DNA from: a virus
IMG/VR virus record: IMGVR_UViG_3300017917_002441
Coordinates: 64,001-128,000 of that record
DNA: 64,000 nt
Reading direction: 5' to 3' (one strand)
Below the pieces are notes generated by a model, which worked only from the letters and a program-made list of their open reading frames with translations, did not search any database and was not told where the DNA came from. Position numbers and translations under genes: made by a program. This document shows, piece by piece, positions 55,925 through 63,998 of this stretch. How positions within the stretch are numbered: position 1 is the stretch's first letter; every line of letters starts with the position of its first letter.

Positions 55925-56406
55925 ATGAAATCCAGATCAATCTGGATTCTATGATAACTGATTACAGTAGTGATTACAGTACTATCAGGATGTCTGATTA
56001 CAATATAAACATTTCAGACACCATTACACTGAGCAACACCGGTGCTATCAGCGGAGCAATGGGCTCCACATACCAATACCCCAATGTTACAATTGCCAAC
56101 GGTGCTTATACCACCAGCGCATTTGGAAACGTGTGGGGAGGAAATCCACTAACAGTTGGCGGATCAGGACAAGTTGATCTCATAGGTGAAAATGCTGATA
56201 TCAAAATCAACGGCAAAAGTTTGTGCAAAGCAATTGAAGCCATTGAACAACGACTCAACATACTCACCCCCAACACCAAACTAGAAGCCGAGTGGGATGA
56301 ACTACGCAAGCTAGGTGAACGCTATCGTGAGCTAGAAAAGCAGTGCTTGGAAAAAGCCGAGATGTGGAAAAAGCTCAAATCAATGCCCCCACCCGAAATA
56401 GTATGA
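55900..56406 (+). CDS. hypothetical protein (S/T/G-rich N-terminus, coiled-coil C-terminus)
   Basis: IEQRLNIL.PN..LE..W..L. Confidence 0.65.
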   Translation: MDSTETKLNEIQINLDSMITDYSSDYSTIRMSDYNINISDTITLSNTGAISGAMGSTYQYPNVTIANGAYTTSAFGNVWGGNPLTVGGSGQVDLIGENADIKINGKSLCKAIEAIEQRLNILTPNTKLEAEWDELRKLGERYRELEKQCLEKAEMWKKLKSMPPPEIV

Positions 56407-57200
56407 CACCAAAACAAAGAATCAAGCACATAGTTTCGTGGATACGGAATTATGCCAAACAAAACAAAATCCAAACCTTGGTTGTTGGAGTAAGTGGTGG
56501 TATTGATTCTGCTGTGGTGTCTGCGCTGTGTGCCAAAACTGGTATGAGAACTGTGGCACTGAGCATGCCTATTCGTCAAAGCGAACACACGCACAATCTA
56601 AGTCAACAACATTGTATGTGGTTGGTCAATCGCTACGAAAACGCAGAATTCCATAACATTGATCTTACGTCTACATTCGAGCAATTTGAATCTGTTACAG
56701 TGCAGTTTGGTAATCAGCTGGCCTATGCAAACACTCGCAGTAGATTGCGAATGACAACACTGTATCAAGTAGCACAGGCCATGGACGGTATTGTAGTGGG
56801 CACCGGCAACCGAGTAGAAGACTTTGGAGTAGGATTCTTTACCAAGTACGGCGATGGCGGCGTGGACATCAGCCCCATTGCTGACTGTTTGAAGACTGAA
56901 GTGTGGGACATGGGCCGCGAGCTAGGTGTGTTATCAAGCATTATTGATGCCGCACCCACTGATGGATTATGGGACGATCAGCGCACTGACGAAGATCAAA
57001 TTGGCATGACATATCCTGATCTAGAGCGTATGATGGCACTAGACTTCTTGAAACGTGCGCACATTGTAGATTCCAGTATGCCCGGGAGTGCCAAACTCAA
57101 CGCAGATGACCGTAAAAAACTAAAACGCTACCAAGAACTACGTGCAAGAAACATGCACAAAATGATCCCAATACCTATTTGTAAAATACCCAAGGAATAA
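56403..57200 (+). CDS. nadE: NH3-dependent NAD+ synthetase
   Basis: [35 protein letters not shown]. Confidence 0.95.
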
Positions 57201-57202
57201 AG

Positions 57203-57529
57203 ATGACTTATGTTGTAACCGAAAGCTGTGTCAAATGCAAGTACACCGACTGTGTAGATGTTTGCCCAGTTGACTGTTTCAAAGCTGGACCAAACTTTCT
57301 TGTAATTGATCCCGACGAGTGCATTGATTGTGCTGTATGCGTAACCGAATGTCCGGTGAATGCTATCTACGCTGATCGAGATTTGCCCGAAAGCCAACGA
57401 GAATTTTTGGATATCAATGCTCGTCTAGCTAAAAACTGGCCTACAATTAGCAAAAAGATTGAGCCACTGCCTGATGCAGAAGAGTGGGCTGGTGTAACTG
57501 AAAAACGACATTTAATCGATCAAGGTTGA
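57203..57529 (+). CDS. fdxA: 7Fe ferredoxin (FdxA type)
   Basis: C..CKYTDCV.VCPVDCF...CIDCA.C..ECP. Confidence 0.95.
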
Positions 57530-57554
57530 CAACTAACTCAAAAACTCATATAAT
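57526..57554 (+). promoter_or_regulatory. sigma70 promoter
   Basis: TTGACA-N17-TATAAT. Confidence 0.75.
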
Positions 57555-57649
57555 AGTGTTTTATTAGTTAAAACCCTATATTATGGAAAAAATTGAGTGT
57601 TTTGGCAGTTTTTTAACTGATGTAGACAGTCAGAAACTAAGTAAAACTG

Positions 57650-57990
57650 AACGCGGAAAACAGATACCGGCGCTTTTTAAGCCATTGAAAGGGTCCGCGA
57701 ACACTTGCAGTCCGTTGCAAGATAATAATAATAAAAATACGGACACACGTTGCAGTCTTGGAATTTCGTCCAAAATACCAAGGCTGTTCGAAAGAGGGCT
57801 TCGGAAATCCTCTTCGTTGACAAATGGTATTGATTCCGCCAAACACTGTAGCGATATGGACGCTGGTGGAATCCAAGAGAGTATGCCAAAGAAGGCCCGA
57901 GGTCTCGCACATAACTCTGATGTAAATATCACGTCAACGTCGTTCATCTTGAACAACTCCGGTGAACAGCTCACTATTAGCTGAAAGGAG
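57650..57990 (+). ncRNA. candidate large multi-domain structured RNA / 5' leader of the cell wall hydrolase
   Basis: At least 8 helices and 2 potential pseudoknots in the longest non-coding gap. Confidence 0.6.
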
Positions 57991-57996
57991 AAAACG

Positions 57997-58563
57997 TTGA
58001 AACTAACTTCAATTAATCGTTTAGGCAGTACAGCCTTAAAGGTTCTAGGTTTCGTAGCTGTGATTTTTGTAGTGGCTTCTGCCACCAATGCCAAGCTTGA
58101 TTCCCTGAAAGGAACCAATGAAGTAGCCCGCCAAGGATTTGTCAGTGTGGCGGATCGTACCAAGCAACTTGAGTGCTTGACACGTAACATTTATTGGGAA
58201 GCTGGCACAGAACCTTTTGAAGGCAAAGTAGCAGTGGCCCAAGTCACCTTGAACCGTGTGGAATCCGGTCGCTTTGCTCGTGACATTTGCGGTGTGGTAT
58301 ATCAAAAGAATGTGATCTATGACAAAGTAGTATGTCAGTTCTCATGGTTCTGTGATGGGTCCAGCAAGGTCCGACCCATTTATCCAGCACACTGGAAAGA
58401 AGCCGAAGAAGTAGCCAAAAAGGTTCTACTAGAAGGCTTTAGACTACCCAGTCTCAAAGATGCTCTTTATTTCCATGCTGATTATGTAAACCCGCAATGG
58501 AAGAAAGAAAAAGTAGCAAAGTTTGGTCGACATATCTTTTACGCAGAACGGAATAACATATGA
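57997..58563 (+). CDS. cell wall hydrolase (SleB/Hydrolase_2)
   Basis: CL..NIY.EA..E...G..AVA.V..NR, CQFSW, FHADYV.P.W, GRHIFY; TTG start after AGGAG. Confidence 0.93.
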   Translation: MKLTSINRLGSTALKVLGFVAVIFVVASATNAKLDSLKGTNEVARQGFVSVADRTKQLECLTRNIYWEAGTEPFEGKVAVAQVTLNRVESGRFARDICGVVYQKNVIYDKVVCQFSWFCDGSSKVRPIYPAHWKEAEEVAKKVLLEGFRLPSLKDALYFHADYVNPQWKKEKVAKFGRHIFYAERNNI

Positions 58564-58877
58564 TCATGCAACGACTGGAAGAATTTAGAAAAAACTTCAA
58601 CGTCTGGACCAACCAGCACTTCAGCAAAATTTCAGCTGATACCTTGGGCTGGTTGGCAGTGATATTGATTCATTGCTCAACTATTCCCACCTTGTTGGCA
58701 TTGCTGACAGGACTCAGCGACACTGTACCCAATTTGGACATTGTGATGTTTATGTGGGCTGGCTTGGTGTTGTTGTTTGCACGTGCTGTGGTGCTCAAAG
58801 ATACTTTGAATATCATCACAGTGGGTGTGGGCTTTATTGCCCAAGCAGTGATCATGGCAATGATCTTGTTCAAATAA
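58560..58877 (+). CDS. 3-TM membrane protein
   Basis: Hydrophobic, coupled to the hydrolase. Confidence 0.7.
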   Translation: MIMQRLEEFRKNFNVWTNQHFSKISADTLGWLAVILIHCSTIPTLLALLTGLSDTVPNLDIVMFMWAGLVLLFARAVVLKDTLNIITVGVGFIAQAVIMAMILFK

Positions 58878-58880
58878 TGC

Positions 58881-58909
58881 TTGACCAAAAATCCCCATTT
58901 TGCTATAAT
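58881..58909 (+). promoter_or_regulatory. sigma70 promoter (cassette core)
   Basis: TTGACC-AAAAATCCCCATTTTGC-TATAAT. Confidence 0.85.
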
Positions 58910-58938
58910 ATTGTTATTGTGAGTAATGGGGATTTTTT

Positions 58939-59343
58939 ATGACCATGCATCTTGAAGGCCCTTGGCTGAGTACTACTGGCAAGCTAAAAAGCAAACGCAG
59001 AAAATATGCATCAGCAGATGCCGCCCGCAAGGCTCGAGAACTGCAAGCTGAGTGGGAACGCCGGCAACAAGAGTGGGACAAGCTGGCTCCAAAGTTCAGC
59101 AACAACAAAATGGCCAAAGCCCGGCCCAAATCCAATTTCCCTACATATCAACCTCCTCCCGGACGTGAAACTGTTCGTATTCCCAGCCTCAACAACGGTG
59201 TTGATACCGGGGTTGCTACACGTGCTCCTGACAAAGTGTACACTGGTACCAAGATCAAAGGCATTGGTACCATGCACAAATCCAATGCAGTGCCAATCTT
59301 TTCAGATGAGCAAGCTGTGGAAATAAGTAAGATGCGACGTTAA
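58939..59343 (+). CDS. conserved T4-like hypothetical
   Basis: YTG....[11 protein letters not shown]...MRR. Confidence 0.75.
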
Positions 59344-59363
59344 CAAAAGGAAAGCAAACTCAA

Positions 59364-59582
59364 TTGGCCAAAGAAGAAGGTTTTAAAATGGAAGGGCAAG
59401 TGGTAGAGGTACTACCCAACGCCATGTTCCGTGTCAAATTAGATGTAAATGCAACACCGGTGACCGGTATCATTTCAGGAAAAATGCGACAGCACAATAT
59501 CAAAATTCTCTTGGGAGACCGAGTAGAAATTGAATTCAGCCCATATGATCTAACTCGTGGGCGCATTACCCGTAGAAAATAA
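59364..59582 (+). CDS. infA: translation initiation factor IF-1
   Basis: [12 protein letters not shown]...ISGKMR...I.IL.GD.V.....[10 protein letters not shown]. Confidence 0.95.
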
Positions 59583-59590
59583 ATATCAGT

Positions 59591-60133
59591 ATGCGTGAAC
59601 ATATTGATCTCATTGAAGCTAGCACTCGCCCAGCCAAACTAGAAACCACTCCGCTTCCTTACGGGGAACGAGATCTAGAACCTGTGATGAGCCGTGCTAC
59701 AATCAACTACCATTACGAACATTTAGCCAAAGGCTATGCAAAGCGTTACAACGCAGGAGAGGGCAATGCCAATTTTAATCGTGCTGGCAGTTATTTGCAC
59801 AATAAATTTTTCCCTCAACTTCGTGCTCCTAAACCCAGCAACCGCCCCAAGGGTGCTGTACTTGCGTTGATCGAAGAGCACTTTAAGACTTGGGAAGATT
59901 TCAAAGAATCTTTCAAAGAAGAAGCAATGAAGATACAAGGGTCGGGTTGGATTTATTTGAGCACATCGGGTGACATCAAAACCATTGCCAACCATGCTGT
60001 GCGCACTGATATCTGCATGCTGGTGGATTGGTGGGAACATGCTTGGGCTCTGGACTACCAAAGCGACAAAGAAGCATATCTAAACAATATCTGGAAAATT
60101 ATTGACTGGGACGTTTGCAACGAACGACTATGA
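59591..60133 (+). CDS. sod: Fe/Mn superoxide dismutase (shortened)
   Basis: LPY...LEP, His ligands, GSGW, DWWEHA. Confidence 0.9.
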
Positions 60134-60453
60134 TTACAATTACTGATTCTGCTGTTGAAAAAATTCGAGACATTCTTGCTGAAGAAAACAACCCCAATCT
60201 GCGATTGCGTGTGTTTGTGCAAGGTGGCGGCTGTTCGGGATTTCAGTACGGCTTTACACTAGATGAAGACCACAACGATGACGACTTTAATATCGAAGCT
60301 GGTGGTGTTGAAGTTTTAGTGGATGCAATGAGCAGTCAATACCTTCAAGGTGCCACAGTAGACTACAAAGAAGATGTGTACGGTGCCAACTTTACCATCA
60401 ACAATCCGCAAGCTGTTTCCACTTGCGGATGCGGTTCAAGTTTTTCTATTTAA
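60130..60453 (+). CDS. erpA: A-type Fe-S carrier ErpA/IscA (HesB)
   Basis: [20 protein letters not shown]. Confidence 0.92.
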
Positions 60454-62342: not shown

Positions 62343-63998
62343 TTAAATCTGGTACCAAATATCGCCGTTGTTGCCACCACTGGGGTTGGCTGTGGAAACG
62401 TATCTTATCCCAAAACCATTGCTGTTTGTTGCAATACTCAATATGCGGTTAGTACTTAGATCGCCGCCGCCAGTGAGTCCAGCGCCAGCAATGATTTGTA
62501 GTGTAGTAGATGGGACACCTAAATTGGTTCTGGCTTGTGCCGCAGTAGAAGCACCGGTACCACCATCTGCTATGGCAAGATCTGTGATGCCTGTAATAGA
62601 GCCACCAATGATAGCAACTGCGCCTGCGTTTTGTGTTGCCATTGTGCCTACATCAGTTACAGCACCGCTTCTAAGACCAAGATTGGTACGTGCTCCGCTT
62701 GCGTCGTTTGCCCCGGTACCACCGTTGTTCAGGCCCAGTGGTGCAGACAATACGTTGATATAGCCGCCATTGATGCTGACATCATTGGCATTTTGTGTGG
62801 CCATGCTACCTAGTCCAAGATTGGTTCTTGCTTGAACTGCTGTATTAGCACCAGTACCGCCAGACGCAACTGGTATTGGGTTGATACCGCTGATGTTACC
62901 GCCAGTGATGTTGACGTTGGCACTACCTTGAGTGGCCATTGTGCCAAGTCCTAGGTTAATTCTGGCAGTTACTACGTCGGTTGCACTGGTACCGCCAGAT
63001 GTAATAGACAGTGGACTTAACAATGATTGTACAGTGACACCTTGAATAGTACCGCCAGTAATGCTAACAGCGTCACTGCTTTGAGTAGCAATAGATCCTA
63101 GGCCTAGATTATCTCTAGCAGTGGCAGCATTATTGGCATTGGTACCACCGTCTGCAATTGCCAACGGAGCGATGCCTGCAATAGTACCGCCTGTGATATT
63201 GACAGCATTGCGGTTTTGTGTAGCTATACTGCCCAATCCCAGATTGCTTCTTGCACCGGCAGCATCAGACGCACCAGTACCACCATCGGCTATAGCAAGA
63301 TCAACAATGCCTGTGATCTCTCCGCCTGAAATATTAATAGCGTTGGCGTCTTGAGTTGAAACACTGCCTAGTCCTAAGTTTGTTCTTGCATCTCCGGGAG
63401 TGGCCGCACCTGTGCCGCCAAACGCCACAGCAATTGGTGCAACACCGCTGATAGAGCCACCAGTGATAGTCACACTATTGGCATTTTGTTGACTCATTGT
63501 ACCCAATGTACCAGTGATGTTTTTTACAAATGCTGTGGTAGCCAACTGATCAGTGTTGGAGTTATTGGGTGCAGTGGGCGCAGTTGGGATGCCAGTAAAT
63601 GCTGGTGAATCTTTTTCACCTTGTACAAATGCTGTTGTGGCAATTTGTGTGGAATTTGTGTTGTAAGCCGCAGTTGGTGCAGTGGGTGTTCCGCTAAACG
63701 CTGGGCTAACTTTGTTGTTTTGTACAAATGCTGTGGTGGCAACAATATTGCTGTTGTCTGTAACAGGCACAGTGGGTGCTGTGGGAGAGCCTGAAAATTC
63801 AGGACCTGACGTTACAAAAGCCGTTGTAGCAATTTGCGTGGTATTTGTGCCAGCATTGGCTGTGGGCGCAGTGGGCACACCGCTTAATTGCACACTGTTT
63901 GTGACAAAAGCTGTTGTGGCAATCTGTGTGGTAGCTGTGCCTGGAGCCGCTGTGGGCGCACGTGGCGTGCCCAAAAACTGTGGGCTAGATGTAACAAA
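62343..63998 (-). CDS. tail fibre protein (5' partial)
   Basis: About 5 G.PTAPTA...N.TQIATTAFV repeats, then about 7 GGT.A....AR.NLG repeats; C-terminal GDIWYQI. Confidence 0.88.
   Translation of the reverse strand, partial: FVTSSPQFLGTPRAPTAAPGTATTQIATTAFVTNSVQLSGVPTAPTANAGTNTTQIATTAFVTSGPEFSGSPTAPTVPVTDNSNIVATTAFVQNNKVSPAFSGTPTAPTAAYNTNSTQIATTAFVQGEKDSPAFTGIPTAPTAPNNSNTDQLATTAFVKNITGTLGTMSQQNANSVTITGGSISGVAPIAVAFGGTGAATPGDARTNLGLGSVSTQDANAINISGGEITGIVDLAIADGGTGASDAAGARSNLGLGSIATQNRNAVNITGGTIAGIAPLAIADGGTNANNAATARDNLGLGSIATQSSDAVSITGGTIQGVTVQSLLSPLSITSGGTSATDVVTARINLGLGTMATQGSANVNITGGNISGINPIPVASGGTGANTAVQARTNLGLGSMATQNANDVSINGGYINVLSAPLGLNNGGTGANDASGARTNLGLRSGAVTDVGTMATQNAGAVAIIGGSITGITDLAIADGGTGASTAAQARTNLGVPSTTLQIIAGAGLTGGGDLSTNRILSIATNSNGFGIRYVSTANPSGGNNGDIWYQI

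Follow-up and report, generated by a model that had tools for sequence, protein, structure and literature searches.

In a giant phage genome, the 467 nt that separate a ferredoxin gene (57203-57529) from a SleB-type Hydrolase_2 gene (57997-58563) are occupied by a large, conserved, multi-pseudoknot RNA. We think it probable, if far from assured, that this RNA acts in cis as the 5′ leader of the sleB operon: a structured RNA of ~430 nt that gates initiation of sleB translation. The DNA analyzed (64 kb, hereafter "the window") is taken from an IMG/VR virus record of 149 kb (CheckV completeness 44%), of which it covers bases 64001-128000. Near-complete relatives span 317-337 kb, one of them with terminal repeats, and the leader RNA family belongs to uncultured phages of roughly 320-340 kb.

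Lysis timing in giant phages is poorly known, and the phages that carry this RNA have not been cultured. An abundant family (more than 120 distinct sequences) that covaries strongly, has three tertiary pairings and adjoins the ribosome-binding site of a likely endolysin is an unusually well-supported new riboswitch or ribo-regulator candidate and a ready target for structure work.

Extent of the leader and its 5′ end

A sequence-only reading of this DNA had placed the RNA at 57650-57990, which proved too short: in the window it extends from about 57561 to about 57999, from a sigma-70 promoter onward, and its length is 290-430 nt across the family. The features of the 5′ end are as follows.

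57526-57554, + strand: sigma-70 promoter, TTGACA, 17-nt spacer, TATAAT (12/12 consensus); expected transcription start ~57561
57577-57592, + strand: conserved 5′ block TATATTATGGAAAAAA (consensus UAAYGGYAAAAA), from the alignments; holds the ATG at 57583
57616-57634, + strand: hairpin H0, ACTGA/TCAGA, just 5′ of CTAAGTA; both-side changes at five of five pairs
57637-57643, + strand: CTAAGTA box, invariant in every homologue with upstream sequence

The leader is presumably transcribed from the promoter at 57526-57554, to judge from its sequence; 49 of 78 homologues have TTGAC-N16-18-TAnAAT in the corresponding position. The 5′ block is kept even in members that have ACG, AAG or ACA for the ATG, and H0 is paired in only 63% of the cells of the MAFFT alignment. 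Neither the block nor H0 was part of the sequence-only reading, which had taken TAAGTA for a late-type promoter box just upstream of the RNA. Since a hairpin and a conserved block lie 5′ of CTAAGTA, the RNA begins near the sigma-70 promoter and the box is internal to it. As a general late promoter CTAAGTA was rejected: it occurs twice in the 64-kb window (4.6 copies expected), the other copy, at 62453, lies within a coding region, and CTAAATA is likewise not enriched in the window. A promoter role for the box is thus unproven, because it sits inside transcribed, conserved RNA and is infrequent in the window. It also closes two of the three reading frames.

Homologues and distribution

Homologues were gathered starting from SleB-anchored loci of viral contigs, in which a syntenic gap of ~350 nt carries near-identical blocks. 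A 22-nt invariant motif, CGGAAANNCTCTTCNTTGACAA (P1 loop), then served as the query for further copies and matched 49 viral contigs and at least 120 metagenome contigs. Ten pattern matches turned up among 32 million prokaryote contigs, of which the 2.4-kb MAG contig L138 was the sole true member; a weak model match, L136, was discarded as a false positive that sits within a response-regulator gene. The collection holds 123 distinct cores, 93 of them less than 96% identical mutually, and 88 score 88-201 bits with our covariance model (R1).

The position of the RNA is constant. A SleB homologue (29-100% identity) follows directly 3′ in all 86 members with enough downstream sequence, and a single copy of the RNA is present in the source record and in each of three near-complete relatives; the covariance model found no second copy in the 64-kb window. 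Standing before one gene class, with its apparent expression platform at the SD and start codon, the RNA has the placement expected of a cis-acting leader. The model also found no leader RNA at 67 other SleB loci without the 22-nt motif (SleB 32-66% identical to the window's), so that not every phage sleB carries it. Among 50,697 isolate phage records there was no DNA match to the RNA, and the nearest isolate-phage SleB is at most 42% identical.

The sequence-only reading did not recognize the family and proposed a search of Rfam, where it is indeed uncatalogued. Nothing in Rfam 15 reached gathering score across the 64-kb window, only noise appeared at E ≤ 10 over 57400-58200, and 11 other members gave no consistent match at E ≤ 5; the models tried included ydaO (RF00379), c-di-GMP, preQ1, SAM-II, GOLLD, ROOL and glmS. 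We found no paper describing this leader RNA family.

Folding and covariation

The + strand folds to -99.4 kcal/mol, against -82.7 ± 5.2 kcal/mol for 100 dinucleotide shuffles (z -3.2; 0/100 as good); the - strand has a z of -0.45. In the alignment of the core (57788-57999, 88 sequences), 88.8% of cells are paired vs. 78.3% after shuffling, and 456 cells vs. 158 carry changes on both sides. The core covariation score is 0.316 vs. 0.149 for shuffles, none of 500 reaching the observed value, and it does not exceed 0.083 when partners are slid by 1-3 columns; these slid controls lie 3-6 times below the observed covariation. For the 5′ domain (65 type-A sequences) the score is 0.265 vs. 0.110 (0/500). 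Invariant G·U pairs fix the transcribed strand. RNAalifold, run on the MAFFT alignment, recovered only four short helices, and the structure was therefore built by hand with covariance-model realignment. Judged on these alignments, conserved sense-strand structure, pseudoknots included, is consistent with a cis-regulatory leader or riboswitch-like element.

The central claim of the sequence-only reading, a real, large, conserved structured RNA with two tertiary pairings, is borne out by covariation at the core helices, the pseudoknots and the kissing loop. Shuffled controls, which it had named beforehand as a test that could count against it, were beaten by the + strand in 100 of 100 cases, and the covariation that it had asked for in homologues is there in both core and 5′ domain, at levels that none of the 500 shuffles matched. 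The stems that it listed are present where it placed them, and nearly all are supported by homologues. One is not: the TGGTAT/ATGCCA helix is not kept in most homologues, which have UGGC on its 3′ side. On the other hand, it lacked the long-range helix P2, the hairpin P4 and stem S1 of the 3′ pseudoknot, all described below.

The 5′ domain and the kissing module

The 5′ domain is modular: it may be absent, of type A (most members) or of longer forms, including that of the window. CTAAGTA lies 36-55 nt before the 22-nt motif in members without the domain and 122-131 nt before it in type A. In the window the domain consists of three elements.

57652-57699, + strand: stem Pa, CGCGGA (57652-57)/TCCGCG (57694-99), enclosing a hairpin at 57673-92 predicted by minimum-free-energy folding
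57704-57744, + strand: 5′ H-type pseudoknot PK1, CTTGCA (57704-09)/TGCAAG (57716-21), whose loop GTCCGT (57710-15) pairs with ACGGAC (57739-44)
57753-57786, + strand: optional hairpin Pk, CAGTCTTGG (57753-61)/CCAAGGCTG (57778-86), whose loop CGTCCA (57767-72) kisses TGGACG (57857-62)

In type-A homologues the counterpart of Pa, GAGUAGA/UCUACUC, is 99.3% paired, and three of its pairs have both-side changes. PK1, with an A-rich linker before ACGGAC, has a topology common to all structural types; its loop-tail stem in type A is 99.6% paired, and three of the four pairs have changed on both sides and rank near the top by mutual information. The first pseudoknot that the sequence-only reading had drawn here therefore stands. 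Its second is better described as a kissing interaction, since the partner of the Pk loop, TGGACG, lies in the loop of P3: all 21 members with a GGAC insert in the P3 loop have a hairpin whose loop is GUCCAA, and none of the 63 others does. The pair flanking this contact varies (U-A, U·G or C-G), and members without the kissing module have a conserved GAAACAAA loop on P3 instead. A short-form member (L085:3584-3821) has a different upstream hairpin and P3-loop insert, which could kiss via ACUG/CAGU; this could be a module swap in which ACUG/CAGU replaces GUCC/GGAC.

The core junction and the 3′ pseudoknot

The core is a junction closed by P2 and flanked by the hairpins P1 and P5, with a second H-type pseudoknot at its 3′ end.

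57792-57814, + strand: hairpin P1, AGAGG/CCTCT; loop UCGGAAA invariant in 88 sequences; 99.8% paired, two pairs with both-side changes
57815-57939, + strand: core junction closed by P2, CGTTGAC (57815-21)/GTCAACG (57933-39)
57832-57841 and 57864-57873, + strand: P3, GATTCCGCCA/TGGTGGAATC; 10 of 11 pairs changed on both sides
57877-57888, + strand: junction GAGAGTATGCCA, inside the P2-closed core
57893-57897 and 57901-57905, + strand: P4, AGGCC/GGTCT, invariant
57942-57954, + strand: hairpin P5, GTTCA/TGAAC; 91.4% paired, three pairs with both-side changes
57957-57983, + strand: anti-SD CTCC (57957-60) followed by the 3′ H-type pseudoknot PK3, stems S1 and S2

P2 is 94.3% paired and shows a double change from A-U to G-C; the core that it closes also contains a variable pyrimidine-rich linker. 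In most relatives P5 reads GCCCA/UGGGC. PK3 is built from S1, GGTG (57961-64)/CACT (57972-75), and S2, CAGCT (57967-71)/AGCTG (57979-83). Although S1 was no part of the model, one of its pairs came first in an unbiased scan of the core for mutual information; S1 is 90% paired, and its variants are all complementary (GGUG/CACU, GCUG/CAGU, GCCG/CGGU, GCGG/CCGU and GCGU/ACGU). S2 is 86% paired, with five of five pairs changed on both sides. The SD begins 1-3 nt after PK3 across the family.

P4 and the helix between anti-SD and SD are beyond a covariation test because they are invariant. A pairing of CGGA in the P1 loop with UCCG was considered and set aside on the same ground, both sides being invariant. 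P4 seems to extend past its invariant 4 bp (columns 112-118 with 138-144; about 57890-57908 in the window), where the haplotypes GGCACUGAGGCC...GUCUUGAU and GCCAAAGGAGGCC...GUCUUUUCUU each keep the pairing. A type-C subfamily without the P5 hairpin has CUCGGG, which is complementary to the P4 loop CCCGAG; this match may reflect an alternative or tertiary pairing.

The target gene

The RNA leads into two overlapping genes.

57997-58563, + strand: sleB-type cell wall hydrolase (Hydrolase_2), TTG start; Pfam PF07486, 1.3e-25
58560-58877, + strand: gene of the same operon that encodes 105 aa and overlaps the stop of sleB (ATGA)

The hydrolase that the sequence-only reading had expected directly 3′ of the RNA is thus confirmed by Pfam. 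Its N-terminus is a signal or anchor sequence, and it matches PHROG endolysin families. When a complete 337-kb relative was searched for five muralytic families (Hydrolase_2, T4-type lysozyme, SLT, Amidase_2 and M23; PF07486, PF00959, PF01464, PF01510 and PF01551), PF07486 was the sole match. The family names and the absence of alternatives point to SleB as the likely endolysin.

The 105-aa protein has three hydrophobic segments, which by inspection are three TM helices. A homologue follows sleB in 55 of 88 members, 69 of the 88 having at least 900 nt downstream. It has no match in Pfam or PHROG, and the protein atlas gave viral hypothetical clusters and weak PQ-loop/MtN3 (SemiSWEET-like) leads only; a putative holin role is only a guess. 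After the sleB/membrane-protein unit lies a second near-consensus sigma-70 promoter (58881-58909: TTGACC, 17-nt spacer, TATAAT, TG extension), ahead of a 134-aa gene that matches phrog_27048 (function unknown).

The expression platform and how it might work

57986-58000, + strand: SD AGGAG (57986-90), TTG (57997-99) and start context CGTTGA (57995-58000), the context being complementary to the P2 3′ strand TCAACG

The sequence-only reading had placed CAGCT/AGCTG, the S2 of PK3, just before this SD and the weak TTG start, and all three are found at those coordinates. Nested thermodynamic ensembles leave the SD mostly paired, with a mean predicted unpaired probability of 0.29; the invariant CUCC (0.33) and UCCU in the P5 loop (0.16) are its predicted partners, and the P2 3′ strand (0.13) is that of the start codon. 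Of 46 UUG-start members, 37 have CAUUGA as their start context, a repeat of the P2 5′ strand. Relative to the family majority, the window carries a matched change at three sites: A>G in the 5′ strand of P2, U>C in its 3′ strand and A>G in the start context. Pairing of start context with P2 is good only in UUG-start members, and the window is the sole compensatory example. By simple geometry, the CUCC/GGAG helix and complete PK3 are probably mutually exclusive.

These pairings suggest a mechanism. The enzyme is muralytic, exported and potentially lethal, its gene stands behind a strong host-type promoter, and the fold would mask its weak start: the SD (GGAG) would pair with the invariant CUCC just 5′ of PK3, and the UUG context (CAUUGA; CGUUGA in the window) with the P2 3′ strand. 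Given both, the choice of helix would decide 30S loading on the weak start codon. A ligand or a phage protein might be the trigger, as might time or the state of translation. It counts against simple gating that the RNA is larger and more ornate than a mask for an SD would need to be.

An open reading frame across the leader

57583-57984, + strand: leader-spanning ORF of 133 codons; TGA stop 13 nt before the sleB TTG

The sequence-only reading had called the region non-coding. That holds insofar as there is no codon-like selection, neither periodicity nor a constant frame being found, and it fails insofar as a 133-codon ORF spans the region, as one does in ~60% of relatives. The three + frames over the leader hold 1, 7 and 15 stops, and an ORF this long arises in only 0.3% of dinucleotide shuffles. 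A spanning open frame is significant at p ≤ 0.05 in 50 of 80 members and at p ≤ 0.01 in 41, and is found in every structural type. On the - strand, all three frames are open for 77-186 codons across the RNA (57630-58190); the stops of the six frames are not significantly low (33 vs. 39 ± 4 in shuffles), so the minus-strand frames are taken as chance.

The presence of the ORF tracks two other features. Of 47 members with a spanning ORF, 45 have an in-frame ATG, vs. 8 of the 31 that lack such an ORF, and 40 of 49 promoter-bearing members have the ORF vs. 7 of 29 promoterless ones. In most promoter-bearing members the ATG follows the -10 box by ~11 nt, giving a nearly leaderless mRNA (28 nt in the window). 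Of 80 members, 48 have an ORF that ends at the sleB start or a short way before it, and 32 have none; stop and start overlap (NTGA) in 14, and in most others the stop lies 4-55 nt upstream. On the SleB tree the state of the ORF changes about 12 times (losses). Among independent pairs on that tree, ATG and ORF are never opposed, although with six well-supported pairs the sign test gives p 0.125-0.5. An association of the ORF with UUG starts (p 0.002 in the raw table) was dropped, as it vanishes on independent pairs and is phylogenetic.

As a gene, this ORF is unconvincing. Variability shows no three-base periodicity (0.77, 0.90 and 0.85 by codon position), invariant blocks are read in differing frames between members (in all three at the P4 block), and leader indels are not multiples of three. 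The predicted peptide, low-complexity and hydrophilic, has no Pfam or PHROG match and no tblastn relatives. Without periodicity or a conserved frame the ORF does not look like a protein gene. It is probably translated all the same, to no conserved protein, and could be a translated leader whose stop falls at or close to the start codon of sleB; its statistics suggest that selection acts on translation through the RNA.

As the ORF crosses the entire RNA to a stop at or just before the sleB start, the passage of ribosomes may contribute to the control. In the window and ~60% of relatives, ribosomes entering at the near-leaderless AUG would unfold the leader and switch sleB on by translational coupling, and the folded RNA would set the frequency of ribosome read-through and coupling. 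Coupling is not a universal mechanism, given that ~40% of members have no ORF, often with neither promoter nor ATG; these members keep the whole RNA, which must therefore also work alone, by ligand, protein or folding kinetics. A bolder version, a new class of large "translated riboregulator," would have the multi-pseudoknot RNA sense a signal (metabolite, second messenger or phage protein) and serve as a lysis clock of giant freshwater phages, by deciding whether ribosomes that enter at the AUG get through it and are handed over to the start codon of the endolysin; we consider it unlikely in this full form. An open reading frame of unconstrained sequence superimposed on a conserved tertiary RNA is an unusual arrangement; if real, it would connect the passage of ribosomes and the folding of the RNA with the timing of lysis in a manner not described for dsDNA phages.

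Alternative explanations

The RNA could be due either to a role in cis, as we propose, or to something narrower or quite different. A strict small-molecule riboswitch would have an invariant pocket of junctions and loops, and its ligand would stabilize P2 and PK3 and thereby free or hide the SD, the ORF being incidental. There is much here that such a switch would use: loops and junctions in which some 50 positions, for the most part unpaired, never vary (UCGGAAA, AAAUGG, GAGAGUAUGGC, the P4 stem-loop and UCCG), a closing helix with a second partner for its 3′ strand at the start codon, an H-type pseudoknot that adjoins the SD, peripheral tertiary contacts that are interchangeable (GAAACAAA loop or kissing loop), and ORF-less members that retain the full RNA. 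Bacterial cell-wall enzyme genes are, moreover, known targets, as with the c-di-AMP-related lysM and M23 motifs (PMC5737381). However, no similarity to any Rfam aptamer emerged even at E ≤ 10, a length of 290-430 nt is much above that of most aptamers, and incidental status sits poorly with the ORF statistics. We judge a strict riboswitch rather unlikely.

Size and modularity, together with several pseudoknots and a kissing loop, also recall stand-alone structured RNAs in the manner of GOLLD, ROOL or OLE, with a trans-acting or assembly function and merely co-transcribed with sleB; this RNA is phage-borne, as are many GOLLD and ROOL copies (10.1101/2024.12.08.627333), and many of its copies come from metagenome contigs. 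A trans-acting RNA is nevertheless hard to reconcile with a junction to the sleB SD that is always kept, at 1-3 nt spacing, down to 29% SleB identity. The RNA never occurs elsewhere (window, source record, three near-complete relatives and the 67 other sleB loci), no intrinsic terminator was found on the + strand over 57100-59400, and no GOLLD or ROOL model matches; this explanation seems to us very unlikely. An ordinary protein-coding gene (133 aa in the window), to which the RNA structure would be secondary, is hardly tenable as an explanation: a long ORF does recur far beyond shuffles and tracks an in-frame ATG and promoter, yet compensatory double changes at more than 40 base pairs are impossible from coding constraint, and the lack of periodicity, the shifting frames and indels, the repeated loss of the ORF on the SleB tree and a peptide without relatives all point the other way. 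A cis-acting leader of sleB is the explanation we prefer.

Comparison with known systems

In the preQ1-II and SAM-II riboswitches and the T4 gene 32 leader, an H-type pseudoknot abuts or includes the SD. The sleB leader resembles them in having a compact, covarying H-type pseudoknot directly 5′ of the ribosome-binding site of a single gene, in cis. It differs in that its SD lies outside the pseudoknot, 1-3 nt downstream, and in that PK3 is the 3′ tip of a 290-430 nt RNA with a second pseudoknot and a kissing loop; the preQ1-II and SAM-II classes gave no covariance-model match to it. In T4 gene e (lysozyme), an inhibitory hairpin of the early transcript masks the ribosome-binding site, and a late promoter inside the hairpin gives escape. 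The parallels are a lysis enzyme gene of a large phage, a possible early host-type promoter and a ribosome-binding site that mRNA structure, here by prediction, would mask; unlike that simple hairpin, the structure here is large and conserved in three dimensions. Among recognizable boxes, which would leave out phage-specific promoters, we found no truncating internal promoter of the gene e type in the leader, and the conserved promoter-like boxes (sigma-70, 57526-54; CTAAGTA, 57637-43) are both upstream of the structured core.

Translational coupling by RNA unfolding at a phage lysis gene has a precedent in MS2 coat-lysis (PMC12548453), and for MS2, fr and GA either RNA unfolding or reinitiation has been described (PMC12548453, PMC9955659). 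As in those phages, the start of a probable lysis gene would lie in inhibitory structure and be reached via ribosomes that end a nearby upstream frame, with NUGA-type stop/start overlaps. In contrast to them, the upstream frame here encodes no conserved protein and sits wholly in conserved, tertiary-structured RNA, sleB has a good SD of its own, and ~40% of members have no upstream frame. Leaders before cell-wall enzyme genes are known from the c-di-AMP riboswitch (ydaO-yuaA, RF00379) and the orphan lysM and M23 motifs (PMC5737381). Those too are large structured 5′ leaders before peptidoglycan-hydrolase genes, but the phage RNA has no match to them at any threshold tried, has another architecture, and is phage-borne rather than bacterial. 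GOLLD and ROOL RNAs, 580-800 nt long, stand alone and assemble into multimeric cages (10.1101/2024.12.08.627333; PMC5737381); the sleB leader is likewise large, modular, pseudoknot-rich, phage-carried and abundant in environmental sequence, as they often are, and unlike them it is joined to a ribosome-binding site.

Neighboring genes

Host-like auxiliary genes cluster around the lysis unit (window 56343-60453). Upstream are an NAD synthase, NadE (56343-57200), and the 2x[4Fe-4S] ferredoxin (57203-57529), both checked against Pfam; downstream are an IF-1-like gene (59364-59582), an Fe/Mn-SOD-like gene (59591-60133) and an IscA/ErpA-like gene (60115-60453), each named by eye from its translation. 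Over ~170 nt the ferredoxin gene has 77% DNA identity to Ralstonia phage YO103_6.
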